Positions 44,553 to 58,680 of a stretch of DNA of 64,000 nt are shown here, piece after piece. Source of the stretch: an uncultured Gammaproteobacteria bacterium (GTDB taxonomy: Bacteria > Patescibacteriota > Microgenomatia > Levybacterales > UBA12049); the NCBI GenBank assembly GCA_964512695.1, contig CAZEJU010000002.1:76233-140232 (forward strand), in the 5' to 3' direction. Both the position numbers and the translations under genes were made by a program. The notes beneath the pieces are model-generated. The model did not search any database. It was not told the DNA's origin and saw nothing but the letters and a program-made list of their open reading frames with translations. Positions within the stretch are counted from its first letter, which is position 1. The number at the start of each line of letters is the position of its first letter.

Positions 44553-44680
44553 AATTTTTGTTATTATATCAGGTTAGTATCTGTGTCTTGAGCTGTAACA
44601 ACCTACATGCTAAAATACGGAGACAAAATATTCCCCTGTAGTCCGCCAGCTGGCGGACAGGAAGCTGTATAGGAGAGAAT

Positions 44681-44934
44681 ATGTGGACTGTATACGTCTT
44701 ATACAATCAGGCAAATCAAAAGATATATATTGGCGTAAGCGCTAATATCGAACAAAGATTAAAGGAGCATAATGTAAAAATAGCAAATCATTATACGATA
44801 CGGCTAAATTTTAAGGGATTTGGGTGTTAATATATAAAGAAGAAATTAATAATAAAAAAGACGCTTTGGTACGAGAAAAGCAACTTAAAAGTTTTAGAGG
44901 TAGAGAATTTATTAAAAAATACATTCCCCTGTAG
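44681..44934 (+). pseudogene. GIY-YIG (UPF0213) nuclease gene interrupted by a +1/-1 frameshift near 44825-44832, ending inside the tRNA
   Basis: Frame A reads 'MWTVYVLYNQANQKIYIGVSANIEQRLKEHN...'. Frame B reads '...IYKEEINNKKDALVREKQLKSFRGREFIKKYIPL*'. Together they reconstitute a typical about 85-aa GIY-YIG protein. Confidence 0.5.
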
Positions 44935-44996
44935 CTCAACGGTAGAGCAGGAAGCTGTTAACTTCAAGGTTCGTGGTTCGAATCCACGCGGGGGAG
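44925..44996 (+). tRNA. tRNA-Asn (anticodon GTT)
   Basis: Hand-folded cloverleaf. Acceptor TCCCCTG/CGGGGGA, D-arm GCTC-AACGGTA-GAGC, anticodon loop CTGTTAA, T-arm CGTGG-TTCGAAT-CCACG. The 5' end resembles E. coli tRNA-Asn. Confidence 0.75.
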
Positions 44997-46565
44997 CAAG
45001 TTCGTTCTTAATATAACTGCCTGTTGGTCAATTAACTCCTGGACAAGCGGAGAATAGACCGTATTAGCAATCTTTTTGTCGTGTACCTCCAGCTTCTCAA
45101 AGAAAAACCGGAGATAACTTTTTTTCAGAAAATCAGGTGCTTCTTTGTACGCTTTCGGAATATCACGGGTCAGTGCGAGTACTTCTTCCAATAAGTCGAA
45201 ATCAAATTTCCTGCTACTTTCAAGTTTTGCTAGTTCCTTATCTACATTCTTAATTTTTTCCTCAACCTCATCACGCAGTCGGCGATTAGCTTCTCTATTG
45301 AACAAAGCATTTGAAAACACGTCCTCCTCAAGAATTCTTCTCCTCCTTATCAGTCCCGCTCTTTCATTCAAATATCCTTTTCGGACTTTTGACTCCTCCT
45401 TATCTCTGTCATTCAGATACCTTCTCACTTTCGCAGTAAGTGCATCAGTGAAACCTTTTGTGAACTTAATACCTCTGAAATGACTGGCAACTTTGTTTTC
45501 AAGGTCGTCTGCCTCCACATAAGGAGCTTTGCAGGGCTTTCTTTTCTGACAATGATAGTAATGTACTGTATCCCTTTTTTTCGAATGAGCAGGGTGCGGT
45601 TCGGCGGTATATCTGAGACCGCAGTCAGCACAGAAAATAATGCCTCTTAACAGATAGTCATACTTTCTTTCTCTTATGGCGAATCCTCTGTGTTTGGCCA
45701 GTATCACCTGACACAAGTCAAAAAGCGGTTTGGATATCAAGGGTTCATGATTACCCATTCGTTCTCTGTTGTTTGTCTCCTGTTTCATCAGACCGTAATA
45801 GAAAGGATTAGTAAGAATCTGCTGAATAGTGCTGTGAGCTAAGGGTTTTCCGTTGACTGTCGTCAGTCCTTTGGTATACATGAACAGCCCGAGCCTTTTT
45901 ACTGAGTACTTGCCTGTAGCGAATCTTTTGAATACTTCTTTCATGAGTGGTCCGTGAATCGGGTCAACTTCAATGGGTAAGGGTTTTCTCGGAAGGGAAT
46001 CTATGTATTGCTGTCTCTCTGGCGTGCGTTTCTTACCCGCGATTCTACCTTCCTTGTCGATATTCAGATATCCGTAAGTTACACCAGTCGGATACCAGCC
46101 GTTATTCCATCTGGTATCTAAGCCTCGCTTTGTCTTTCTGCCTAAGTCCCGTGAGTAGAATTCATTAATTCCCGCCATGAAAGTGTCCAACAATCTTCCT
46201 TCCGGGCTTTCATCCAACATCGGCTGAACAACGGAAATTAGCCTTGTTCCTGCTTTTTTGAGCTGTTCCTTGATAAGAAAATGGTCTGTGGCATTTCTGG
46301 CGAAACGGTCAGTGTTGTAGACAATTATGGCTCCTACTTTCCTGGTGTCAATTTGTTCAAGCATTTTCAGAAACTCGGGTCGATTGGAGACTGTGGCACT
46401 TTGTCCTTCGTCTTTGAATGTTTCCAATATTTCATACTCTAATTCGTGAGCTTTCTTGGTACATATATCTGTTTGAGCTTCAATGGAGTACCCTTCCTTG
46501 GCTTGTTCCTCCGTACTTACTCTGCAGTAGATGAAACATGTTTTCTGGTCGTTATTCATATTCAT
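44964..46565 (-). mobile_element. Large serine recombinase (integrase) whose last about 11 codons are encoded by the tRNA-Asn 3' half
   Basis: N-terminal resolvase domain 'CFIYCRVSTEEQAKEGYSIEAQ', a recombinase domain, a Cys-rich zinc ribbon 'CADCGLRY...HYYHCQKRKPC', and a coiled-coil. Codon usage is distinct. Confidence 0.75.
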
Positions 46566-46734: not shown

Positions 46735-47082
46735 TCAGAACGGGATATCGTCAGGATTAACTTCTTCGTTGCTTTCTGATTTCTCCTTGTATGCCTCGAA
46801 GATTTTCTTCTCGATAGTTTTCCATAATTCCTCTTCGAAGTAGACTACCTTTGAATAGTTACCTTTCTTACTCCTGTAACAGGGCGGCTCAATCCATATC
46901 GGTTCTCCGAAGTCTTCATGAGGATAATCAGATTTTTTGACGGTGCAACCGCGGATAATTTGACCCGGAAGCTGTATTTCTGCCTGTGCTAACAGCCAGG
47001 CTTTCCTATAGAGTTTGACTTTGACAGTCACATTTTCGATGATGTACTTTCTGACCTGTTCTTCCGTAATATTCATGTTCAT
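46735..47082 (-). CDS. Island hypothetical protein, 115 aa
   Basis: Intact ORF with island-type composition. Confidence 0.35.
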   Translation of the reverse strand: MNMNITEEQVRKYIIENVTVKVKLYRKAWLLAQAEIQLPGQIIRGCTVKKSDYPHEDFGEPIWIEPPCYRSKKGNYSKVVYFEEELWKTIEKKIFEAYKEKSESNEEVNPDDIPF

Positions 47083-47100
47083 AATTAGGTTTGTTGTATT

Positions 47101-47352
47101 TCAATAAGACATTTTTTCTTTTTCCGACTCCGTAAATATGAAATTCTTCAATGTTCTTATCGCTTCAACAAAAGAGAGAGCGTCAACGGTAACTTTGCCG
47201 AGCCAATACTGAGAAACCATTTTTTCGCAGTCTGTATTATTTCTGAAGATGAACCAATAGCTTCTGCCTGATTTGTTGAGTCCTATGAACTCTTTTTTTT
47301 TGGCGTAGAGCATCGAGCTTATATAGAGGTCTTTTGTTAAGTAGTTTTCCAT
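47101..47352 (-). CDS. Island small hypothetical protein, 83 aa
   Basis: Intact ORF. Confidence 0.3.
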   Translation of the reverse strand: MENYLTKDLYISSMLYAKKKEFIGLNKSGRSYWFIFRNNTDCEKMVSQYWLGKVTVDALSFVEAIRTLKNFIFTESEKEKMSY

Positions 47353-47577
47353 AGTTTTTTCATTTTCATCTGTTTATTCTTCTTGTACTGGATAGTTGCT
47401 AGAGCTAAATCAAACCATTGTTCAACAGCTAGCCGGAAATAGTCGTCATTCTTGGGAGTCTGCAGCAATTGGCTTTTCTTAATTTTCATTAAGTCAATTG
47501 TCGGAAAATTAGAGGATTATTCGGAGGGCCCAGCTGGAGTAATTCGATTTGTCCCTCTGTATGAAGTAGAAGTATTC

Positions 47578-48549
47578 TTATTCGCTATCGGGATTTTTAT
47601 TATATCTTTTGAGAAGTTGCTTATATCTGTTGACTGATTTTTTGACTGCGGGTGTTGCTATATCGACATGACTGATTATTCTTTCAGCCTCTTCCTTTTG
47701 TTTCCTTAAATCCTGGTTGAGTGGAACTTTTCTGAGTCTCTTCGAATCCGACATTGCCTTCTTGTACTTATCAAGACCTTCTTCACCCGCAGCTATTAAT
47801 TTGTATCCCGTACCAGATTTATTTTGCCAGTATCTTTTTCTGTCACGAAAGATTTCATCTTTCGTAGATGAGGGAATAGTTCTGTCTACGCCCCAACCGC
47901 TATTTTGAGCCGGAAGTATTTCTTTCCTGTAGGCATTGACTACATCGTCCAAAGTTGCCTCCAGAGGTATGGACATATTGAAGTGTATGAAAAGCGTCGG
48001 CACTCCGTTCTTGTTTTTTTCAAACTCCTGTGAAACTTGTACTCCCGATAAGTCATCAACTGTCACTTTGTTGCATATAATTGCATGAGCCAGAACTCGT
48101 TCCATTCTTTCCGAAGTATGAAGTTGTCGTCTGAGATTGGTAAGCGTCTTTCCGAACTCGTCAGTTATTTTCATTTCCCTTTTTCTCTTTCCGAATGCAT
48201 AAGATATAAGTCTGTTATACAAACCGCTTTCCTTTTGTTGTACATGTTGCTTTGAGTCGGGTATGTCATACCAAATATCCTGAGAAAGAATATCGTATAA
48301 GCCTCCGAAGCGAAGAGAAAACCATAATTTTAATAAGTCAGTTGTATCAGTCTTGGATGCTAAAAAAGACTCAAAATATGATTTGCCTTCTTTGGAATGA
48401 GGACAGTTTCTCGAGGTATCAATATTAAATTGGTATCGTATCTTAAGTAGTATTTTCTGGAAGTCTTCTCTATCAACAGTCAGGGCAATTGCTGCGAACT
48501 TTCTTCTGTTCTTCTCATTTTCTTCAATATCAATATCTACCTTGTTCAT
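47578..48549 (-). CDS. Island hypothetical protein, 323 aa
   Basis: Intact ORF with no motif recognised. Confidence 0.4.
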   Translation of the reverse strand: MNKVDIDIEENEKNRRKFAAIALTVDREDFQKILLKIRYQFNIDTSRNCPHSKEGKSYFESFLASKTDTTDLLKLWFSLRFGGLYDILSQDIWYDIPDSKQHVQQKESGLYNRLISYAFGKRKREMKITDEFGKTLTNLRRQLHTSERMERVLAHAIICNKVTVDDLSGVQVSQEFEKNKNGVPTLFIHFNMSIPLEATLDDVVNAYRKEILPAQNSGWGVDRTIPSSTKDEIFRDRKRYWQNKSGTGYKLIAAGEEGLDKYKKAMSDSKRLRKVPLNQDLRKQKEEAERIISHVDIATPAVKKSVNRYKQLLKRYNKNPDSE

Positions 48550-48580
48550 ACATAATGTTCATATTCAGGCAGAGAATAAG

Positions 48581-49141
48581 TTATTCTATTTGACGGTTTT
48601 CGTCGACTGATTCTAATCTTTCGAATTCTTTGAGCATAATAGCAAGTTCTTCATAAGTCATGCGTTGTAAGGCTCGTCCGAATTGAGTGTTCATTACTGA
48701 AGATATCGACATCGCTGTAACTGTATTGACTGTGTTATTTATAAGTGGTCTCTGGTTGACTACTCCCACTGCTTCACGCTCTTCCTGGAGACCAATTTCT
48801 ACCAATCTTGTTGCCTGCGGTTCGGAAACATCCTTCGTATCTCGTTTTCTCATCGCTTCCAAACCCCTTGCCTGAAGGAAGCGGGCAACTTTGGCTTGTC
48901 TTTTCCTTACTTCAACCTCGCTATCGCTTACCCATTTGACCATTTTGTCTTCAGTTTCCTGTTCAAGCAGCCTTCGATATTCATCTCTTTCAGCTCTCCA
49001 TCCGGTCGTGATTCTGGTGACATTTCCGTTAATCTTGATTTCCTTGCTTTCAAGAAAGGCATTAACGGATTCAATGGTACCGTATTTGTATTCCTGTTTG
49101 AGTGTATTCCAGTCAAATTTAATCGGTGCGTCCATACGCAC
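48581..49141 (-). CDS. Island hypothetical protein, 186 aa, highly charged and coiled-coil-like
   Basis: Intact ORF. Confidence 0.35.
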   Translation of the reverse strand: MRMDAPIKFDWNTLKQEYKYGTIESVNAFLESKEIKINGNVTRITTGWRAERDEYRRLLEQETEDKMVKWVSDSEVEVRKRQAKVARFLQARGLEAMRKRDTKDVSEPQATRLVEIGLQEEREAVGVVNQRPLINNTVNTVTAMSISSVMNTQFGRALQRMTYEELAIMLKEFERLESVDENRQIE

Positions 49142-49207
49142 TCACATTATACCTGAAACAGACCAATAAGAGGCAATGAATAGACGTTTCTTACATGCGT
49201 ACAATCT

Positions 49208-50014
49208 TCAATAATTTTGAGTCCATTTGGTCAGCAGACCGTTCTTGAAGTAGAGGAATAACTTTTGTCCGTTACTTCCGTAGTATGACCAACTTTCAGT
49301 TTCATCAGGAACTAAGAAACCAGATTCTGTTGTCTTTGACTTGTCGTCCGGAATACCCAAAGAATAATTGGCTTCAAATTGATTCATGTTCTGCCAATAG
49401 CGTTGATTGACAATATCTTCTATATGGTCTGCGTATCCTGCGAAAGTCAGGGCCGTTATAGCTTTGACACAATCCTGGGATGTGAGATTCTCTCCCTGTT
49501 TTGTTGTTTCTGGTTTCAGTTCCGCTTTTCCGTCTGCTCCGTCACTTAATTCAAGAACCGTATAGAGTCTTGTAGTGTTTCTGCGTTCATTGCAATAAGC
49601 CTCAGCCATGTCACCTGCCTTTTTGACATTAGCAGCCGTTTCTTTGACGGTTGTAGCGTCTTGCATGGCATTTTTTGATTCAGACTCCTGCTTCGTTTGT
49701 TCTGTCTGAGCTATGGGAGTGGGAGAAGCTGTCTGATTAGAAATTTTCGTACCGACGGTCTTGGCGGAAGGTGGCAGTGTTTCAAAACTGAATATCAATA
49801 CTGCGACAAACAATATAACTCTTATCAAGCCAGGGACTTTGAATGACACACGCTTGTTTATGATTTTCCAGAAAGGAGGGAAGATAATCAGGCCGGAAAA
49901 AATCATCAATAAGGCAGACTTCGGGTAGGCAAAAGTCAGAAGCAGGCCAACAATAAGAATAAGTATCGAAAGCGGCCAAATTATAAGTTTCAGTATTCGT
50001 TCCATACCGTACAT
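49208..50014 (-). CDS. Island membrane protein (two N-terminal TMs plus an extracytoplasmic domain)
   Basis: 'IIWPLSILILIVGLLLTF' and 'LMIFSGLIIFPPF'. Confidence 0.4.
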   Translation of the reverse strand: MYGMERILKLIIWPLSILILIVGLLLTFAYPKSALLMIFSGLIIFPPFWKIINKRVSFKVPGLIRVILFVAVLIFSFETLPPSAKTVGTKISNQTASPTPIAQTEQTKQESESKNAMQDATTVKETAANVKKAGDMAEAYCNERRNTTRLYTVLELSDGADGKAELKPETTKQGENLTSQDCVKAITALTFAGYADHIEDIVNQRYWQNMNQFEANYSLGIPDDKSKTTESGFLVPDETESWSYYGSNGQKLFLYFKNGLLTKWTQNY

Positions 50015-50111
50015 ACATGCGTTATTTTCAGCCTCAAAGCTGTCTGAATCTTAACACATTGTGACTGTGAGTCGCAAGACTCCCAGTCACATTCTTAGTA
50101 CATTTTGGAGT

Positions 50112-50366
50112 ATGGGACGAACTAATAAGTCATTTCCCGTAGACCAAAAAGACAAGGCGGTGTTACAGAAAAAGTTCGGTAAGAGACTCGCTGAAATAAG
50201 AACTGAGAAAGGGATCACTCAGGAAGGGTTGTCGTTTGAAACAGGGGTCGACAGGACGTATATTAGCTATATTGAGCGGGGTGAGCGAAATCCATCACTC
50301 TTCATGCTTTGGAGACTTTCAAAAGCTCTTAAGATCAGGATTAACGAGCTGACGGATTTTCAGTAA
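50112..50366 (+). CDS. XRE-family helix-turn-helix regulator, a possible controller protein
   Basis: 'LAEIRTEKGITQEGLSFETGVDRTYISYIERGERNPSL'. Confidence 0.65.
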   Translation: MGRTNKSFPVDQKDKAVLQKKFGKRLAEIRTEKGITQEGLSFETGVDRTYISYIERGERNPSLFMLWRLSKALKIRINELTDFQ

Positions 50367-50448
50367 CATTCTTCCTTAATTTCATCTTTGTCAGAAGTGT
50401 GTCCTTCTTACGGTATAATTGAGACCGGTAAGGAGTGGAGTTACTCGC

Positions 50449-50868
50449 ATGGATGTTCATACAAAAGAACAAAGAAGCTATAACATGTCACGGGTGAAGT
50501 CGAAAAATACTAAGCCTGAATTATTAATGTTTTTGTTACTCGAAGAGGCCGGATATAAGTTTGAAAAACATTATCCGATTACGGGTAAGCCCGATATCGC
50601 ATTTCCCGAACACAAGGTTGCCGTGTTCATTGATGGAGAATTCTGGCATGGTAAGGATTACAAGCAGATAAGAGATTCCATTCCGCCTTTTTGGGTCAAA
50701 AAAATAGGAGAAAATCTTAAACGGGACGGGAGAAATATGAGAAAGCTAAGAAGTGAAGGCTGGCGTATTCTGCACTTTTGGGATAAGAAAGTGGTCAAAT
50801 ATCCTGAGAGGTCACTCCGAAGAATTACGCGGTTTCTTGAGCGTGTAAGAATCTCTGACGGAAAGTAG
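50449..50868 (+). CDS. vsr: Very-short-patch repair endonuclease
   Basis: 'MDVHTKEQRSYNMSRVKSKNTKPE' and 'VAVFIDGEFWHG'. Confidence 0.8.
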   Translation: MDVHTKEQRSYNMSRVKSKNTKPELLMFLLLEEAGYKFEKHYPITGKPDIAFPEHKVAVFIDGEFWHGKDYKQIRDSIPPFWVKKIGENLKRDGRNMRKLRSEGWRILHFWDKKVVKYPERSLRRITRFLERVRISDGK

Positions 50869-51955
50869 GAACAAGTTTCTTTGTCGTTTTCAATTCATTC
50901 ATCGATTTAAGAAGAGCATCGGCGGCTCTTTTTGCAAGCAAAGGCGGAACTGCGTTTCCTATCTGTTCGGCAATCTGGCCAAAATTGCCTATGAATTTGA
51001 AATCATCAGGAAAAGTCTGAAGTCGTGCAGCTTCACGAAGAGATATTGCTCTGTTTTGTTCCGGGTGTCCGAATCTTCCCTTTGAAATCATCGCACAACC
51101 TCCTGTCATTGTAGGTGATGGTTGGTCCCACCTCATTCTTCCGTATACGTCTTTGTGTCCCTTTGTATTTCGGTGACATTCGAGGACTAACTCATCAGGC
51201 CATGAAGTTCTGTCTCCACCATCGTGAGGGGTCAACATGAGTCTTTTCAGATTGATTTCGGCGAGACTGGCGGAAGCATGCATGGCGTCATCCGGGTGTT
51301 TCTCGCCAGCCTGAATTTTGGGCAAGTCGTTGATGGCTTCTCTTACCGTATTCCAAGCTGGTAAATCATCAGAAGTTGCCGGGTCAATGTTGGTCTTAGA
51401 AGGAAAAGATAGCCTGATATCCGAATTATTAGTGCCCATAAGGACGAGCCTCTTTCTTCTCTGAGGAACGCCGTAATCGGCCGTATTCACAACGTCGTAG
51501 ACTGTCTGATACCCCAGCTCATGAAGTTTCTGCAGTATTTGAAGAAAGAGAGGTTTCCCGATTCCCGTCGCAAGCCCCGGAACGTTTTCAAGAACGAAAG
51601 CAAGCGGCTTAATTTCTTCAACAATTCTCAGGAATTCATATATCAGTTTGTTTCTCGGGTCTGTTAATCTTTGTGAGTTTCTCCTGGCACTCGAAAACCC
51701 CTGACAGGGAGGACAAGCGATGAGAACCACCTGTTTTCCGTTTTTGAATCCTCCCGCTTTCAACAGCTCCTTACCTGACAGATAAGAGATGTCTGACGGG
51801 AATACGGCACAGTCGGGAAAGTTTGCCTTGAATGATTCGGATGCGTTTTTGTCGATATCAACGGCAACTTTGATATCAAAACCAGCTTGCTGAAAGCCTA
51901 ACGCCGAACCTCCGCAACCGGAAAAAAGGTCAATTACACCCAAGTTTCCCTTCAT
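50825..51955 (-). CDS. dcm: DNA (cytosine-5)-methyltransferase
   Basis: Motif I 'DLFSGCGGSALGF', motif IV 'PPCQGFS', motif VI 'ENV'. It is convergent with vsr and overlaps it by 44 nt. Confidence 0.85.
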   Translation of the reverse strand: MKGNLGVIDLFSGCGGSALGFQQAGFDIKVAVDIDKNASESFKANFPDCAVFPSDISYLSGKELLKAGGFKNGKQVVLIACPPCQGFSSARRNSQRLTDPRNKLIYEFLRIVEEIKPLAFVLENVPGLATGIGKPLFLQILQKLHELGYQTVYDVVNTADYGVPQRRKRLVLMGTNNSDIRLSFPSKTNIDPATSDDLPAWNTVREAINDLPKIQAGEKHPDDAMHASASLAEINLKRLMLTPHDGGDRTSWPDELVLECHRNTKGHKDVYGRMRWDQPSPTMTGGCAMISKGRFGHPEQNRAISLREAARLQTFPDDFKFIGNFGQIAEQIGNAVPPLLAKRAADALLKSMNELKTTKKLVPTFRQRFLHAQETA

Positions 51956-52112
51956 GATAATAATATATCATTTTTCGCCCGGTCGCTGTCGGGGTTTTTT
52001 GAAGAGTGTATATACTCATTCATTCCGTGTTATATATTTTATAAGTGTTGACTACAGAATGAAAATATAGTATCCTTTGTTCCAGCAAATCGGTCTAAAT
52101 ACTGAAATTAAT

Positions 52113-52340
52113 ATGAAAACAGGCGAAACAAAAGGTGCGGCTTTCAAAAGGCTCGCTTCCAACAGAACGAATAACGCAATCAGGAACATCAAACTTCTGG
52201 GTAATTTGTCCAACAAACATAATTACTCCTACTCCGAAGAGGACTTCAAACGAATTTTCAACAGCGTCGAACATGAACTTAAACTGGCAAAATCGAAATT
52301 TCTTATCTCGCTGAGTAAGAGTAAGAAATTCAAACTCTGA
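52113..52340 (+). CDS. Small basic hypothetical protein, first gene of the candidate operon
   Basis: ATG at 52113. The track's 52077 start is a TTG. Confidence 0.35.
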   Translation: MKTGETKGAAFKRLASNRTNNAIRNIKLLGNLSNKHNYSYSEEDFKRIFNSVEHELKLAKSKFLISLSKSKKFKL

Positions 52341-52363
52341 AAAGTGGATAATTAATTATTAAA

Positions 52364-53014
52364 ATGAAAATGAAAAAAGATATAACATCACTGAAGCTCA
52401 CAAGACCACAGAAGATTCTCGTAACACTGTATCAACTTTCCGACGGTACTAATAAACAGGTCAGGTTCGAAGATATAGCAGTAGGCGTTTATAAGAACTT
52501 CACTTCCGATTTTCAGCTAAGAGGTTATCCTCAATACCCTGATACGGGTGATATTGTACATAAACCGCTGTATAGCGAATTGAAAAAAGGCGGATATGTA
52601 TTATCCGGCAATAAGTACTTTTCCCTTACTCCGAAAGGAATTGCGTACGCCAAAAGACTGCTCCGCGTTTCAGAGAAAGAAACCGAACCGGGTAAAACCG
52701 CTTCAGTGAAACTTACGGCAGACCAGCAGAAAGAGCTTGACAGATTGAAATCTTCAAAGGCTGTTGAGTTGTTTCTTAACGGCAAGAAAGAGGATATTCT
52801 TGATATAGACTTCTATTCCTATCTGGAAGTTACAGTGAGGACGGGTAAGAATGACTTTCTGGGAAGACTTCGCACGGTAGAAGACGCCATTAATGCTACA
52901 AAAAACAGAAGTGACACGCTGTACAAAAAGCTGAGAGAATGTCACGAGTATCTTCTTGAAAGATTCAGAGGAAACATTGATTTCGTAAGGAACAGCAAAG
53001 GAGGTAAGAGGTAA
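52364..53014 (+). CDS. Putative winged-helix DNA-binding protein, 216 aa
   Basis: 'RPQKILVTLYQLSDGTNKQVRFEDIAV...GGYVLSGNKYFSLTPKGIAYAKRL' is PadR/MarR-like. Its stop overlaps the next start. Confidence 0.4.
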   Translation: MKMKKDITSLKLTRPQKILVTLYQLSDGTNKQVRFEDIAVGVYKNFTSDFQLRGYPQYPDTGDIVHKPLYSELKKGGYVLSGNKYFSLTPKGIAYAKRLLRVSEKETEPGKTASVKLTADQQKELDRLKSSKAVELFLNGKKEDILDIDFYSYLEVTVRTGKNDFLGRLRTVEDAINATKNRSDTLYKKLRECHEYLLERFRGNIDFVRNSKGGKR

Positions 53015-54858
53015 TGGCAACGACAATACAAATGAAAATTAAGGAAGAGCAGAATGTCTATCATGACAACATTCTTGATATTTGGGGTAATGACTTCAAT
53101 TTCAGTCATGAAAAGGGTTTGGCAGAATGGCTTAAGAATTCAGTAGACGCATACCGCAGAGTCGGGGCTGCCGACAAAGACCAATACATTATCTTCCGTT
53201 TCACTGACGGTACTCAGACGACACCTCCAGTTATTGAGTGCATTGATTTCGTGGGAATGGAATTGGTTGATATTGAGAAGGCTTTCAAATGGTGGGGTGA
53301 CCCTGATGCGGCAAAAAGAGGTCAAAAAATTAAGGTATTCGGCGGTCATGGAAACGGCGGAAAGTTCTATATGCGTCAGATGTTTCTGCAATCACATTTT
53401 GTGACATACAGGCAGGGAAAAATTAACGTCTTCGGATTCAATGAAAACAGGAAGTATGGTTTTGCAGAAGGATATAAGGACAAAAAAGTTACACTTGATG
53501 AAGCCCTGAAGATAGCCGGGATAGAAAGGTCAACTATTCCCAATGCGGTTTTGCGTCAACTTGAACACGGAGAGACTGGGTTTACTGTTGTCAAAGGAAT
53601 CAGACCGAAAAAAGTCGTCGGTAGGAGTCTTCCCGTATTCAGAATATGTGACAAGCTGAAGTATCATCCTCAGGCAAGAAGTCCTCTTAAGTTCAGTAAT
53701 GTATCCGTTATCCATAACGGCAAGATAATTGCGAACGGCCTGAGAATGGAAGATATCGAACCGCTTGAAGGTTTTGAAGGACCGTTCTTTTTTGAGATTC
53801 CCGACGAAATAGATTCCATAGCGGACGGAGAAACAGGAAAGAAAGTGAATATGTATGACAAGAGGTATGGGAAAGGCAGTCTGGTATTAAAAACTTCATC
53901 TCTTCCTTTCGGTCGCGGAGGTAGAAAACCTGAGCTGAATTGTATTGATATTGTCGGTGAAATCGGTGTTATTGCTTCATATAACATGCAACAGATAGGC
54001 TTTCTCCGATACTTCCCTCAGGCTCAATATATATATGGAGAGTGCTCATGTCCCATTCTTGAAGACCCGGAATATGATTGTGTTCAGAATGACAGAGAAA
54101 GACTTGTCGATAATGAAAAAACAGCAGCTCTCCTTCAATGGATTGCAAGAAGAATAGATGAAGTGGCAGGCAAGATTGCCGATAATGAAGCGAAGGCGGA
54201 AGAAGCTGAGAATATAAGAGCTACAGACGAGTTTAATCAGATTCTCAATAAGTGGAAGAATCAGTTTATGTCGAAGCTGTTTGCTGAGGTCTTGGGCGGT
54301 ACGGGAAAAGGAGATTCTACCGGTGGTCAGGGTGACGAAGGCTCAGGTGGCGGCACGAAGAAAGAATCAAAAGACAAGGACGGATTAGGCTCAGGAGCCG
54401 GTAAGGGTGGCGGAGAAGGAGATGAGAAGAAGAAAGGTTCAAGAGCACCCCTTGTACTTTTGTCCGGACAGGAAGACCCGGAATTTCCCGGTATGCCTGT
54501 AACTTTTTCTGACAGACATTTCGCTGTGGAACAAAGACAGCAGGATGTAGACAGAGGAATATATTGGATTAATCTTGAAAAGCCGATGGCGAAGAAGATA
54601 ATCGATAAGTACGGAGTTGACTCTCCGAGGTGGAGAAACTATTTATTCCAGAGATATGTTGACATATTTACAAAGGAAACATTGTATCGTCTGGCAAAGA
54701 AGGAAGGAGGCTCTCTTACGCCCGAACAGGCTGACTACGAAATAATGCGTGTGTCATCTCTTGTATATGATAAGGCCACAATCGACCTTGAAGATTTTCT
54801 TCTGAGCGAGAGATACAATTCAGGCAAGAATAATGAAAATGAATCCGAACAATCATGA
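53014..54858 (+). CDS. GHKL/MORC-like ATPase with a Gly/Lys/Asp-rich linker
   Basis: Bergerat N-box 'AEWLKNSVDA' (ExxxNxxDA) and G2-like 'FGGHGNGGKFY'. Low-complexity stretch 'GGTGKGDSTGGQGDEGSGGGTKKESKDKDGLGSGAGKGGGEGD'. Confidence 0.55.
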   Translation: MATTIQMKIKEEQNVYHDNILDIWGNDFNFSHEKGLAEWLKNSVDAYRRVGAADKDQYIIFRFTDGTQTTPPVIECIDFVGMELVDIEKAFKWWGDPDAAKRGQKIKVFGGHGNGGKFYMRQMFLQSHFVTYRQGKINVFGFNENRKYGFAEGYKDKKVTLDEALKIAGIERSTIPNAVLRQLEHGETGFTVVKGIRPKKVVGRSLPVFRICDKLKYHPQARSPLKFSNVSVIHNGKIIANGLRMEDIEPLEGFEGPFFFEIPDEIDSIADGETGKKVNMYDKRYGKGSLVLKTSSLPFGRGGRKPELNCIDIVGEIGVIASYNMQQIGFLRYFPQAQYIYGECSCPILEDPEYDCVQNDRERLVDNEKTAALLQWIARRIDEVAGKIADNEAKAEEAENIRATDEFNQILNKWKNQFMSKLFAEVLGGTGKGDSTGGQGDEGSGGGTKKESKDKDGLGSGAGKGGGEGDEKKKGSRAPLVLLSGQEDPEFPGMPVTFSDRHFAVEQRQQDVDRGIYWINLEKPMAKKIIDKYGVDSPRWRNYLFQRYVDIFTKETLYRLAKKEGGSLTPEQADYEIMRVSSLVYDKATIDLEDFLLSERYNSGKNNENESEQS

Positions 54859-56266
54859 CAATTCCATCCTGCCCGCACAGTTATCACTGCATAACACAAC
54901 TTCGAATACCGGAGCTGTTAATTATTTGTCAGAGAATGAAATATCCCTCCCTCCTTCTCTGAGTAATGACGACTCCATTGAAGTATTGGGTCTACCAATA
55001 AGACTGGAAAACGCTCTCAAAAATTCAGGAAATATCACGACAGTCGGACAGTTAGTTAATACCGCTGACGAAAAGTTGCTGAAGTTGAGGAATCTCGGTC
55101 ATAAGTCCGTCAACTATCTTATGCAGGTGAAATTGAAGATAGATGAAAAGTTCAGTACTCTCCAAAACAGAACACCCACAGAAATAACTGAGCAAAAACA
55201 AGAGGAAAAAATTATTCCTGTCAATCAACTCCTCAATTTGTTGCTCGATAGATGCGGTAGTGAAAGAGTCAAAGAAATAGTCAAAAGACGATACGGCCTT
55301 ATGGACGGAGAAAGACAAACTCTCGAAGAAATCGGTGAGCATTACGGAGTAACTAGAGAAAGAATCAGACAGATTCAAGTTAAGGCATTGAAGAGCATGC
55401 GACATCCGATTACTACAGCCAGGAAACCGATTACGGATATTATGGAAACCATTCTGTTTCGGAATGGCGGAATAATTTCTGCTGAAGAAGCGGACACCAT
55501 AATTCCGGAAGCTTTCAGTGATACGGGTAACGACGGGAGTTCTGTGCTTGATTTACTTTGTGAATTGGGCTGGATTCAGAGCTGCAGAATCGGAGATATA
55601 GCAATATATTCACCGAAATTTGACGGTGTTTCTCTGTGCAAGTTGTCGGAAAAAATCACATTTCTGATTAAGAAACAGGATTTAGGGATTGACATTCCTT
55701 CAATATTCAAAGGTGTCAGTATGTTCAGAAGAATCAGAGACCAACGTTTCAATCCTCAGGACTTCGTTCTCAGATATTGCAGAATCGACCCTCGGATTGA
55801 AGAAATCGGACTTACATCAGCACAACCCGAAGTTTTTTTCAGGTACTATACAGTCGGTCATTTCGCTAAGAAGGGTTGGGTGGTTCTTATGACCAGAGTG
55901 TTGGAACAGGAACAAATGCCGTTACATTTCACTGAAATTGCAGATAAGGTAAATGACCTTCTGGGTAATTCTGAGAGGAGACTGGATGTAAGAAGAGCAC
56001 ATTCGATATTGATTGACGATGAAGCATTCGCTCACAGTGGTATTAACGGGACGTACGGTCTTACATCGTGGGGTTTGAGAAAAGATTCAACTGTCGAACT
56101 GGCAGAAGAGTGTCTGAGAAAAGCGGGGTTCCCGTTACATTGGAAGCAAATATTCAATTATGTGAGCAGGTATAAGAATACAAAACCGGGAAACATTACC
56201 AGTATTCTTGAAAATCATCGCAGATTCAAAAGAGTTGAATCAGGAATTTATTGGCTTAATGACTAG
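54833..56266 (+). CDS. Multi-HTH protein made of RNA-polymerase-subunit-like modules: alpha-CTD-like, sigma70 region-4-like, and two HARE-HTH-like domains
   Basis: 'IRLENALKNSGNITTVGQLVNTADEKLLKLRNLGHKSVNYL' resembles the RpoA CTD. '[41 protein letters not shown]' resembles sigma r4.2. 'PLHFTEIADKV...GTYGLTSW' and 'PLHWKQIFNYV...GIYWL' resemble HARE-HTH. It overlaps the upstream gene by 26 nt. Confidence 0.6.
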   Translation: MKMNPNNHDNSILPAQLSLHNTTSNTGAVNYLSENEISLPPSLSNDDSIEVLGLPIRLENALKNSGNITTVGQLVNTADEKLLKLRNLGHKSVNYLMQVKLKIDEKFSTLQNRTPTEITEQKQEEKIIPVNQLLNLLLDRCGSERVKEIVKRRYGLMDGERQTLEEIGEHYGVTRERIRQIQVKALKSMRHPITTARKPITDIMETILFRNGGIISAEEADTIIPEAFSDTGNDGSSVLDLLCELGWIQSCRIGDIAIYSPKFDGVSLCKLSEKITFLIKKQDLGIDIPSIFKGVSMFRRIRDQRFNPQDFVLRYCRIDPRIEEIGLTSAQPEVFFRYYTVGHFAKKGWVVLMTRVLEQEQMPLHFTEIADKVNDLLGNSERRLDVRRAHSILIDDEAFAHSGINGTYGLTSWGLRKDSTVELAEECLRKAGFPLHWKQIFNYVSRYKNTKPGNITSILENHRRFKRVESGIYWLND

Positions 56267-56274
56267 TGATATAT

Positions 56275-58680
56275 ATGGACATACAGAAAATTAAAATTAA
56301 GAGCGATTATAAATTAGCGGATATCGTTCATGATATTGAAAAAGGAATCTTGAGGATTCCTCAATTCCAGAGAGAGTTTGTGTGGGATAAGCCCCGGGTC
56401 ATCAAACTTCTGGAAAGTATCTATCTTGAATACCCGATTGGGTCTTTTTTCTTCTGGGACGCTCCGCGAAAGTATTACGACTTCTATCGTGATATCGCTG
56501 AGTTGGGTCTTCCCAAGCCCGATAGGTACGAAAAAATTGTTTTCATTCTCGACGGTCAACAGAGGCTTACTTCCCTCTATGTTACGGTCAAAGGGTTGAC
56601 GCTCTACAGTAGGGATTACAAAAAGATTTGTTTTGACCTGGATGAAAAAATATTTGTTGACAGAATACCTGACAATCAGAGATTCGTTTCTGTTTCAGAT
56701 TTACTATCGAATGACCGATTTGATGTCTATGAACGACTTACGGTTGAGCGAAAGAAATCATTCAACGAATGCTATCAGCGATTCAATAATTATCCTTTCT
56801 CAGCGATTGATGTCCGGGACAAGGAACTTGATGAGGTCTGTGACATCTTTGAGCGTATCAACCAGGGAGGACAGAGACTCAATTTGTTTGACCTCATTTC
56901 AGCAAGCACTTGGACTCCCGAGTTTGACTTAAGGTTTGCGGTCAAGAAAGAGAATGACAATCTGAAGACAAAGGGCTTCGGAGATATTGATAATGAAGTC
57001 TTTCTTCAAACACTTTCCCTTATCGCCAAGGGTTCATGTACGAGACCTGTCCAATTACAATTAAGGGCCGAAGACGTTAATAAGTTCTGGCAGGAGACAG
57101 TCAATTCAATGTCTCTGGCAATTGATTATCTGAAGAACAACTTAGGGGTGGTCAATTCGGTGTTCATTCCGTACAGAAGTATGATAGCTGTTGTTGCTTA
57201 CCTGTTCTCTGTCAACAAAGGCAGGAGTCTGAATCACGAGCAGTCAGAGCTATTGTCCCAATGGTTCTGGCAGACTACGTTTTCAGAGCGGTACGGAGCT
57301 TCAATTCTGACGTTAATGACCGAAGACAAAAAATTAATGGACAAAATAGCTTCAGGAACTGATATCAGCGTTAAGTATCCGTTTTCGTTGGATATTGATT
57401 CACTTATTCAGGTGAGAATGTATCGAAAGTCGGCTGTTAAAAACGGCATTCTGTGCCTGTTGGCTAAGAGAAACCCCAGACATTTCAAAAACAATGTCCC
57501 TCTTCTGCTCAAAGACGGATATTATTCAGATTTCAACAATTCAGAGAAACATCATATTTTTCCTAAGGCGATTGTTCAGAAGAAGTTCCCTATGGTCATG
57601 GTACATTCACTCCCAAACTTCTGTTTCATTCCTGCGGAACTTAATAAGGAGATATCAGACAAACAGCCGAGCAAGTATTTTGAAGAGTATTTGAGTATAA
57701 ACCCCGACTTTGAAGATACTCTCAGAACCCACCTGATTAAGTACGATGATTCAATCAGACAGAACGATTTCATGTCTTTTCTGGCTTCAAGAGCGGCGAT
57801 GATTCTTGAGGAAATAACGAGAGCTACCGGTTCAAAAATCAGTCGGGTAGTAGCAGATAACGTTAACAAGGCGATAGATGATACTGAGAAGAAACTGCGT
57901 GACTTCATAGATAAGCAATTATCCTTAAATAATACTGATTATTGGAAAACATCAGTACCGAGCGATGTTGTCGGAATAATGCGTCAGAGAGTCAATCAAT
58001 ATCTGTCCAAAGACCCTTCAAAGATAATCAGCGATTTCAGTTCAAGGGACTTACTCGACTTCTGTGACATTATGGATTATTCAAAAATGGTCATCTCAAA
58101 CTGGAACATATTTTCAACTTTTTTCAGGTCGAAGATTGAAACTGAGAAAAGATTTTTGAATCTGAAAGAGTTCAGAAACGCAGTCAAACATACAAGAGGA
58201 GAGATTGTTCCTTTCATTCAGAAAGAAGGAGAAGCGGCTCTGGAATGGCTATCAATCATTCTTGGTGAAGTCAGAAAAAAGGGAGAGGAAAGAGCTTCAG
58301 TTACAGAGACCGACGAACAAACCATTAACAGGGTTGAATCGGAGTTTGTCAAACATATGGTCAAAGGAATACCTCAATGGATTGAAAACGATTACCCTGA
58401 AGGAACCAGTTCAATAGTGAAGTTGGTGGGCGGTACGGGTTCTGACCATTACATAAAAACAAACAGCAGAACAGCTATCTGGTATTATTTCGCTAAACAA
58501 TGGGTGTTCATGGAGTTGAAGGATGCGACTGTTGAAGAAGCTAAATTGTTGAGGGAAAGGATTTCAAAGCCCGAGTCAATATTAGAAAAGCAAAACGGTG
58601 CCGTCAGATTTCATCTGATGAATGATAATGATTTGAAGGTGGTAACGGACATTATAAGAATCAGAGCTAATAACGGTTGA
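56275..58680 (+). CDS. GmrSD-family-like nuclease: DUF262 (ParB-like) plus DUF1524 (His-Me finger) plus a C-terminal extension with a HEPN-like RNxxxH motif
   Basis: 'IPQFQREFVWD' and 'LDGQQRLTSLYV' are DUF262 motifs. 'SEKHHIFPKAIV' is DUF1524. 'EFRNAVKHTRGE' is an Rx4H motif. ATG at 56275; the track start 56266 is a GTG. Confidence 0.65.
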   Translation: MDIQKIKIKSDYKLADIVHDIEKGILRIPQFQREFVWDKPRVIKLLESIYLEYPIGSFFFWDAPRKYYDFYRDIAELGLPKPDRYEKIVFILDGQQRLTSLYVTVKGLTLYSRDYKKICFDLDEKIFVDRIPDNQRFVSVSDLLSNDRFDVYERLTVERKKSFNECYQRFNNYPFSAIDVRDKELDEVCDIFERINQGGQRLNLFDLISASTWTPEFDLRFAVKKENDNLKTKGFGDIDNEVFLQTLSLIAKGSCTRPVQLQLRAEDVNKFWQETVNSMSLAIDYLKNNLGVVNSVFIPYRSMIAVVAYLFSVNKGRSLNHEQSELLSQWFWQTTFSERYGASILTLMTEDKKLMDKIASGTDISVKYPFSLDIDSLIQVRMYRKSAVKNGILCLLAKRNPRHFKNNVPLLLKDGYYSDFNNSEKHHIFPKAIVQKKFPMVMVHSLPNFCFIPAELNKEISDKQPSKYFEEYLSINPDFEDTLRTHLIKYDDSIRQNDFMSFLASRAAMILEEITRATGSKISRVVADNVNKAIDDTEKKLRDFIDKQLSLNNTDYWKTSVPSDVVGIMRQRVNQYLSKDPSKIISDFSSRDLLDFCDIMDYSKMVISNWNIFSTFFRSKIETEKRFLNLKEFRNAVKHTRGEIVPFIQKEGEAALEWLSIILGEVRKKGEERASVTETDEQTINRVESEFVKHMVKGIPQWIENDYPEGTSSIVKLVGGTGSDHYIKTNSRTAIWYYFAKQWVFMELKDATVEEAKLLRERISKPESILEKQNGAVRFHLMNDNDLKVVTDIIRIRANNG

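Follow-up and report, generated by a model that had tools for sequence, protein, structure and literature searches.

What is the function of a 614-amino-acid (aa) protein of no catalogued family that is encoded beside a DNA methyltransferase in an uncultured bacterium of the Microgenomatia (Patescibacteriota)? The gene lies at 53014..54858 on the + strand of a 64,000-nucleotide (nt) stretch of contig CAZEJU010000002.1 (assembly GCA_964512695.1), hereafter the window, whose coordinates are used unless another locus or accession is named. A first-pass annotation, made from the letters of this stretch, had called the open reading frame (ORF) with exactly these ends, an ATG start and 614 aa, and had proposed a MORC/GHKL-like ATPase acting as the switch of a larger system. 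The analysis reported here assigns the protein to the GHKL ATPases with an S5-like transducer and shows that the system is a cassette spanning 50419-56266 (i.e. Vsr-Dcm-87aa-216aa-GHKL-sigma-like) and not the window's four co-directional genes as such. An ATP-gated clamp or switch in a DNA-surveillance (defence-like) cassette is, overall, the best explanation of these data and is held with moderate confidence.

A GHKL fold joined to an S5-like transducer

Sequence-profile searches of the window protein against Pfam, NCBIfam, PADLOC and PHROGs gave zero matches, and searches of PDB sequences with both the single sequence and a profile returned only low-complexity noise. The Pfam models, including HATPase_c_3 (PF13589) and HATPase_c (PF02518), detected nothing at E <= 0.1 in this protein or in 10 distant homologs, none of the 120 homologs listed carried a precomputed Pfam domain, and tblastn of 50,697 phage records found no match to the ATPase. 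An AlphaFold2 (AF2) model was built from an alignment of 31 homologs and had a mean predicted local distance difference test score (pLDDT) of 80.6 and a predicted template-modelling score (pTM) of 0.68. Foldseek matched this model to MORC2, MORC4, MORC3, SMCHD1 and Hsp90/TRAP1 at E-values of 7e-11 to 1e-8 (probability 1.00, ~440 columns, identity 9-14%), with template-modelling (TM) scores against the MORC modules of 0.45-0.52 when normalised to target length. There were 153 PDB chains at E <= 0.001, and the top 50 listed were all MORC, SMCHD1, Hsp90/TRAP1 or HtpG.

A second line of evidence was obtained by profile-profile comparison with hhalign. The reference was a HATPase_c_3 gene neighbouring the cassette in a related locus, of the VcSduA/paraMORC3 type, which was expanded by database search into a bona fide family. 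The two profiles aligned over 333 columns with a probability of 96.4% (E 1.2e-9), bringing four motifs and the S5 arginine into register. This level of support needed distant homologs, which were added from an exhaustive representative search, as a shallow query alignment (effective number of sequences 2.7) gave a probability of just 55%. A separate MORC reference, built from locus ORFs by iterated hidden Markov model searches, had drifted into histidine kinases and was discarded. Because the AF2/Foldseek and hhalign lines are independent and agree, a Bergerat (GHKL) fold followed by an S5-like transducer, as in the GHL class, is established at the level of model and profile comparison. The first-pass annotation had named the lack of a GHKL fold in structure prediction as the outcome that would overturn its ATPase assignment; the fold was recovered.

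The recovery of Hsp90 and TRAP1 among the top Foldseek matches raises the question of whether the gene encodes an Hsp90/HtpG-like protein chaperone that is carried by a mobile element by chance. HtpG C-terminal domains were also present among the non-significant matches of the protein's own C-terminal domain; these HtpG/Hsp90 matches had E-values of 1.7-4.6 at probabilities <= 0.06, and the Hsp90 matches had root-mean-square deviations of 13-20 A. With no Hsp90-family match in Pfam, NCBIfam or PDB sequence searches, and with an obligate linkage of the gene to DNA-binding proteins and a DNA methylase, a chaperone is highly improbable.

The MORC S5 signature (i.e. GhXhhpXXRhl) was absent by regular-expression search from all 49 family members examined. 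The protein is therefore classed, on its sequence, as MORC-like, a 'paraMORC' in the sense of PMC2292703, and not as a MORC sensu stricto.

ATP-site residues are retained in divergent homologs

The GHKL ATP-binding domain was delimited by the hhalign motifs and the invariant residues to residues 1-228 (53014..53697, + strand). Conservation was examined in an alignment of 49 diverse homologs with identities down to ~20%. Met1 aside, the invariant residues were G35, E38, K41, N42, D78, G81, G113, G115, K117, R361 and N520, and because the motifs that they define persist across such divergent sequences they are not chance matches. The N-box foreseen by the earlier annotation reads E38-WLK-N42-SV-D45-A46, and its E38, N42 and D45 align to E25, N29 and D32 of the HATPase_c_3 proteins. 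Its glycine-rich lid was likewise found, as G110-GHGNGGK117-FYMRQMF, in a region with a lower pLDDT (63-70) in the AF2 model, as expected for a mobile ATP lid. The lid pattern GxxGNGxKxxxMR is common to the window protein and the lid of MORC3 (GQFGNGFKSGSMR).

Motif II is the divergent DxGxG box that the annotation had described. Its sequence, I-D78-F-V-G81-M82, falls short of the DNGxGM of the MORC type by one residue; the first glycine is missing and hhalign places a one-residue gap there, whilst the aspartate and second glycine are kept and M82 is the MORC-type methionine. The G189-F-T191 of motif IV aligns with an invariant G156-T157 of the HATPase_c_3 reference family, and N359-D-R361 with the arginine of its invariant TNR. 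From these alignments Glu38 is predicted to be catalytic, Asn42 to bind magnesium, Asp78 to contact adenine and Arg361 to act as a gamma-phosphate finger.

The shortened motif II, without its first glycine, and the failure of the Pfam GHKL models to detect the protein would both fit a degenerate pseudo-ATPase, in which the divergent DxGxG box has abolished nucleotide binding and the protein serves only as a scaffold. Such degeneracy is very unlikely, however, as the invariance of the ATP-site residues and Arg361 across 49 divergent homologs is the pattern expected under selection for catalysis. This invariance argues for an active enzyme, and the ATPase is probably functional despite its unusual G1 box.

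Domain architecture

The S5-like transducer, which carries the invariant R361, was assigned to residues 229-367 (53698..54114, + strand) from the ~440 Foldseek columns and hhalign; the structural and profile alignments extend through to about residue 400. A check for a transducer on the C-terminal side of the ATPase had been suggested: such a domain does exist, but it precedes the linker (~229-367) and does not lie in the C-terminal region. It is followed by a single helix of ~59 residues (residues 368-427; 54115..54294, + strand; H368-426 by DSSP), modelled at a pLDDT of 85-95, which is a possible coiled-coil arm.

Composition, entropy and pLDDT together delimited a disordered Gly/Lys/Asp-rich linker at residues 428-478 (54295..54447, + strand). 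This segment is 39% Gly, 18% Lys and 18% Asp+Glu, holds the lowest-entropy window of the protein and has a pLDDT <50 at residues 430-475. The low-complexity, Gly/Lys/Asp-rich character given in the first-pass annotation was correct, whereas its length of 40 aa had to be revised to 51 aa. Both composition and length (47-53 aa) are kept in 31 homologs with overall identities of ~47-81%. A distant subfamily of ~750-800 aa (e.g. P0150, P0161 and P0196) has Big_2 Ig-like domains filling the region between the helix and the C-terminal domain, which is unusual for a cytoplasmic ATPase.

The C-terminal region had been described as 200 aa long and lacking an obvious motif; it measures 136 aa (residues 479-614; 54448..54858, + strand) and indeed contains no motif of any known family. 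A separate AF2 model (54421-54855; pLDDT 88.4) revealed an alpha+beta domain of ~125 residues that is ordered to about residue 600. Three conserved motifs are specific to the family (i.e. LLSGxDxDP, QRxxDVxxGIYWIN and RWRxYLFQRYVDI). The residues listed as invariant within this domain are D488-P489, Q507, D511, W518 and N520, of which N520 belongs to the invariant set of the 49 homologs; conservation of the polar D488, Q507, D511 and N520 suggests a specific binding or catalytic site. Foldseek of this domain against the PDB produced no significant match (best E 1.2) and no MutL C-terminal domain. As this fold search was negative, neither a dimerisation nor a nuclease domain is claimed. A viral library gave a single borderline match, to an uncharacterised protein of Hokovirus HKV1 (A0A1V0SGC9; 702 aa, E 0.035, probability 0.98, TM 0.52, 140 columns).

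Conserved gene linkage defines a cassette

Linkage was assessed in 87 related loci by searching their ORFs with iterated profiles of the window proteins; 46 of these had at least 5 kb on each side and are termed full-flank loci. The most constant companion is a gene for a 216-aa protein (52364..53014, + strand), found directly upstream of the ATPase gene in 83/87 loci and 43/46 full-flank loci; in the window its stop and the ATPase start overlap (TAATG). Although without a match in Pfam, PADLOC or NCBIfam, this partner probably pairs a winged helix at its N terminus with a helical domain at its C terminus. The winged helix is weakly indicated: HTH_45 was recognised for 6 of 25 members, and the match to a MarR chain had an E-value of 0.45. 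Upstream of it is a gene for an 87-aa protein with the motif FKRLAxxRTN...LGNLSNKxxYxY (52077..52340, + strand). This small gene was detected in 43/87 loci (24/46 full-flank) and, where present, always lies just upstream of the 216-aa gene. No nuclease-like motif was observed in either protein.

Downstream, a 477-aa adaptor containing an RNA polymerase alpha C-terminal domain (alpha-CTD), sigma-70 region 4 and a HARE helix-turn-helix (HTH) by Pfam (54833..56266, + strand) starts 26 nt within the 3' end of the ATPase gene and was present in 64/87 loci (32/46 full-flank). Homologs of the adaptor range from 290 to 1030 aa and have one or two copies of alpha-CTD; the PADLOC model of PglW was matched at residues 800-980, and MzaA at its sigma-4 part. 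Six loci from Solirubrobacterales were without an adaptor (L062, L063, L067, L069, L077 and L085), and a family of five related ORFs of 164-223 aa is found near the cassettes of this group. Its member in L069 (6679-7350) encodes a 223-aa SeqA_N+Mrr_N protein just upstream of the partner gene and, by its domains, looks like a stand-in for the adaptor that is likewise predicted to bind DNA.

On the other side of the 87-aa gene are a Dcm-type C5 cytosine DNA methyltransferase (50825..51955, - strand; Pfam DNA_methylase E 1.8e-71) and a Vsr very-short-patch T:G mismatch endonuclease (50419..50868, + strand; Pfam Vsr E 3.4e-25). The two genes are convergent and overlap in the window, and were found in 63/87 (36/46 full-flank) and 46/87 (27/46 full-flank) loci, respectively. 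Vsr never occurred without Dcm among the 87 loci and is fused to it in L035-L037. At the nucleotide level, the window is homologous to the closest loci between 50446 and 56254 (i.e. from Vsr through the adaptor). An HTH_3 (Cro/C1-type) regulator identified by Pfam (50061..50366, + strand) is kept only in the closest loci of the candidate phyla radiation (CPR). Its gene ends 52 nt before vsr, an arrangement typical of the controller (C) proteins that govern the nuclease gene in restriction-modification (R-M) systems, and a controller function is possible. No further family recurs near the 87 loci, except for large serine recombinases (14 loci). In two of the ten full-flank loci without Dcm the ATPase gene stands alone. 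Lone homologs without partner, adaptor or Dcm were seen in the metagenome-assembled genomes of two Deltaproteobacteria (L057, 7893-9752; L066, 7947-9737), and that of L057 lies between glmU-like and glmS-like housekeeping genes.

As Dcm and Vsr are the sole DNA-acting enzymes of the conserved cassette, the genes could form a portable very-short-patch repair kit in which the ATPase replaces MutL and stimulates Vsr at T:G mismatches from deaminated Dcm sites. The HTH proteins would then be sensors of lesions or hemimethylation, and the kit would make it less mutagenic for a mobile element to carry an orphan, anti-restriction Dcm, without attacking foreign DNA. Several observations are compatible with this proposal: E. 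coli MutL interacts functionally with Vsr (as cited in PMC2292703); the ATPase has a MutL-like layout of ATPase module, flexible linker and C-terminal domain; many hosts are CPR bacteria with reduced genomes; and in Verrucomicrobia and Acidobacteria the five genes form one co-directional operon with vsr last. Repair is an unlikely primary role, however, given that 41 of the 87 loci lack Vsr and 10 of the 46 full-flank loci lack both Dcm and Vsr. As Vsr occurs only with Dcm and both are missing from these ten loci, Vsr follows Dcm and not the ATPase. The Pfam models MutL_C and DNA_mis_repair also failed to match the ATPase, and the toxin-like genes and defence-island neighbours described below point to conflict.

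A variable downstream slot and an integrative element

Immediately downstream of the adaptor in the window is a gene for an 804-aa protein (56266..58680, + strand) combining GmrSD_N (DUF262) with a Swt1-like HEPN domain, as detected by Pfam and PADLOC; its start overlaps the preceding stop. This gene was considered as a core member and rejected, for it was found in 1/87 loci (L039, where it is upstream of the adaptor) and the nucleotide homology between loci ends at 56254. It is a locus-specific, effector-like add-on. In other loci the same slot, at a distance of <=15 nt and on the same strand, is occupied by genes for Ymh-HEPN proteins, AAA_21/AAA_15 ATPases, Trypsin_2 peptidases, Fic/DOC proteins, proteins with the Shedu SduA_C domain or unknown products (e.g. 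L005 13278-14791; L011 11289-12911; L015 11276-12538; L021 4458-5213; L049 3493-4728). The slot could be a swappable effector position or could reflect adjacency within defence islands. Shedu, PIN and Fic genes are also found among the cassette neighbours.

A HATPase_c_3 gene neighbouring the cassette in L001-L004 was likewise rejected as a member of the system, being present in few loci and encoding its own PD-ExK nuclease. In Acidobacteria (L001, 14523-16667, - strand; L002, 2698-4551, + strand) the product ends in a D...ELKRP motif of PD-(D/E)xK type and, from these sequence features, is apparently an independent single-gene system similar to paraMORC3/Shedu type I-D.

The lack of a conserved nuclease, together with an adaptor assembled from the modules by which RNA polymerase recognises promoters and a HARE-HTH, would be accommodated by a nuclease-free, chromatin-type silencer or element regulator. 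By analogy with eukaryotic MORC silencing, which is linked to DNA methylation, the adaptor would target promoter-like DNA that the ATPase then compacts or traps, repressing the transcription of invading DNA or of genes belonging to the element itself. Such a role would also suit the linkage to Dcm, the closest structural matches (i.e. the DNA-compacting silencers MORC2/3/4 and SMCHD1) and the solo ATPase copies between housekeeping genes. It is a doubtful alternative: the argument is purely one of analogy, sigma-4 and alpha-CTD modules also occur in the defence proteins PglW and MzaA, and the variable effector slot is left unexplained.

The cassette is adjoined by a large serine recombinase gene (44964..46565, - strand; Pfam Resolvase, Recombinase and Zn_ribbon_recom), whose 3' end is overlapped by a tRNA-Asn gene on the opposite strand (44925-44997). 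Together these two features place the cassette within an integrative element. The 5' region of the tRNA has a 17-nt near-copy 293 nt upstream (44625-44641). A 16-nt direct repeat (46576 and 58861) was examined for att sites and rejected, as it is within chance expectation. Between the recombinase and HTH_3 genes are five ORFs on the - strand (46735-50014) of 115, 83, 323, 186 and 268 aa, which are presumably cargo or backbone genes of the element. Pfam matched none of the three largest, and the scan of the two smallest covered PHROGs only. The 268-aa ORF showed a weak match to a Sie-like superinfection-exclusion family of PHROGs (E 0.005).

Distribution of the family

More than 840 relatives of the ATPase were retrieved from databases at E <= 0.001, and an exhaustive profile search resolved at least 464 clusters at 50% identity. 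All named relatives are annotated as 'hypothetical', one evident misannotation excepted. A scan of one genome per species located the ATPase in 187 GTDB species from more than 10 phyla. The best 80 loci are all from metagenome-assembled genomes and have hosts among Microgenomates and Parcubacteria (both CPR), Acidobacteriota, Nitrospirota, Verrucomicrobiota, Planctomycetota, Myxococcota, Solirubrobacterales and Ignavibacteria. The closest relatives of the window ATPase (76-94% identity) belong to Microgenomates-type CPR bacteria.

A distant homolog of 800 aa (24% identity) is encoded on a conjugative plasmid of a cultured strain of Ensifer adhaerens (NZ_CP118613.1, 59223-62548; L088), which makes the question experimentally tractable. 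This copy has an 87-aa-type protein upstream (E 4e-25) and a 216-aa-type partner downstream (E 2e-11). The three core genes are annotated there as hypothetical, and a DNA methyltransferase and an AAA ATPase are encoded nearby.

Proposed mechanism

A role for the ATPase as the ATP-dependent switch of the system, as first suggested, is a reasonable reading of its context. The protein may dimerise on ATP like other GHL ATPases and so act as a clamp or switch. The 216-aa partner, the 87-aa protein and the multi-HTH adaptor would scan DNA together with the ATPase, the putative winged-helix partner and the adaptor delivering DNA to it. Dcm would mark host or element DNA as self, and Vsr would repair the T:G damage that Dcm causes. 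ATP-driven closure on foreign DNA might then either block it directly or license an interchangeable downstream toxin or nuclease (DUF262-HEPN in the window).

The results above directly support the starting points of this scheme (i.e. the fold, conservation of the ATPase residues, the order of the domains and the linkage of the genes). Retention of the trio of 87-aa protein, ATPase and partner in the Ensifer plasmid, even at 24% identity, supports a shared cassette. The serine-recombinase element, the Shedu, PIN and Fic neighbours and the variable downstream slot support a context of conflict. Precedents are available for two parts of the scheme: MORC and paraMORC ATPases are described with Dcm and Vsr in R-M-like operons in PMC2292703, and the VcSduA nuclease is gated by a GHKL domain in which E27A abolishes defence (PMC12137116). 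The alpha-CTD-plus-HTH module of the adaptor also occurs in the BREX protein PglW (PMC12839542). Dimerisation, DNA clamping, discrimination of self from non-self by 5-methylcytosine (5mC) and coupling to an effector are inferred.

A number of findings weigh against an ATP-gated surveillance switch. In about 20% of the full-flank loci (10/46) housekeeping genes lie on the flanks and Dcm is missing over a distance of 8 kb, so that methylation, at least when encoded in cis, is dispensable. The core contains no conserved nuclease, with Vsr tracking Dcm and not the ATPase, and neither the ATPase nor its partner proteins match a PADLOC 2.0 model. An effector-like gene occupies the downstream slot in just ~14 loci and could be there through mere defence-island adjacency. 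The negative fold search leaves dimerisation through the C-terminal domain without support. Finally, the loss of the first glycine of motif II could give an ATP affinity that differs from the canonical one.

A tentative variant, for which we have low confidence, is a new kind of nuclease-independent immunity or epigenetic system. HARE-HTH or Mrr_N-type adaptors would read the 5mC set by Dcm, and the MutL/MORC-like clamp, with its glycine tether of fixed length, would topologically trap unmarked DNA and either silence it or hand it to a downstream toxin.

Comparison with known systems

MutL- and MORC-like ATPases in methylase-linked, laterally mobile conflict cassettes have been known since 2008 from the work of Iyer, Abhiman and Aravind (PMC2292703). 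Like paraMORC1-5, the present family consists of prokaryotic GHKL+S5 ATPases without the MORC-specific motif and with a family-specific C-terminal extension, and, as for paraMORCs, its genes lie beside those for cytosine methylases and Vsr in R-M-like neighbourhoods that are mobile between lineages. Unlike paraMORCs, neither the protein nor the conserved core contains a superfamily II helicase, restriction-endonuclease-fold, HNH or TIR domain. ParaMORC1 is described there as having 'intact catalytic motifs', its own C-terminal extension and co-encoded MORC, methylase and HNH genes. The window ATPase differs from that description in motif II, which is not intact, whilst its context agrees in part through the linked Dcm and the HATPase_c_3 neighbour of L001-L004. 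Nothing in the available text of that paper refers to the 216-aa and 87-aa partners or to the adaptor. A literature search of incomplete coverage yielded no description of the cassette, and the family, its partners and its architecture appear to be undescribed, the fit to the published description of paraMORC1 being imperfect.

With a GHKL+S5 module at the N terminus and a C-terminal domain set apart by a long flexible linker, the protein is laid out like MutL, with which it also shares the genomic association with Vsr and the theme of methyl-directed discrimination. This parallel is an analogy and not a demonstrated homology of the C-terminal parts. Unlike MutL, the family has a fixed, ~51-aa Gly/Lys/Asp-rich linker, an extra 59-residue helix and a C-terminal domain without an endonuclease motif or structural match, and neither DNA_mis_repair nor MutL_C matched in Pfam, NCBIfam or PDB sequence searches. 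Unlike eukaryotic MORC2/3/4 and SMCHD1, the ATPase lacks the S5 signature and has no CW, chromo-like or hinge domain.

VcSduA/paraMORC3 (Shedu type I-D; PMC12137116) is likewise a family of GHKL proteins, and the GHKL domain of VcSduA controls an effector in defence; paraMORC3, however, is a single-gene system with its own C-terminal PD-(D/E)xK nuclease, whereas the window ATPase lacks a nuclease motif and has partners. Multi-gene defence systems with a sigma-70-region-4 or alpha-CTD module are also known in MZA (MzaA-E) and type 2 BREX (PglW), and the adaptor matched MzaA and PglW over these modules at E 1e-10 to 1e-15. The cassette does not qualify as MZA, as the sigma-4 part of the adaptor scored 37-57 bits against MzaA where the NCBIfam cut-off is 800. 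Compared with classical R-M systems, Dcm is present in 78% of full-flank loci but there is no conserved restriction nuclease, Vsr being a repair nickase.

Significance

These results add a GHKL+S5 family that is invisible to Pfam, NCBIfam, PADLOC and PHROGs and define its fixed partners. The family may show how methylation-linked conflict systems work without a nuclease in their conserved core, and it is relevant to how the MutL-like ATPases associated with R-M systems in bacteria are linked in evolution to the MORC silencers of eukaryotes. If the nuclease-independent reading were true, the coupling between MORC proteins and DNA methylation in eukaryotes would have in this cassette its prokaryotic counterpart and possibly its antecedent. 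Such a system would be common across CPR and further uncultured phyla, and the C-terminal domain of its ATPase would represent a new fold.

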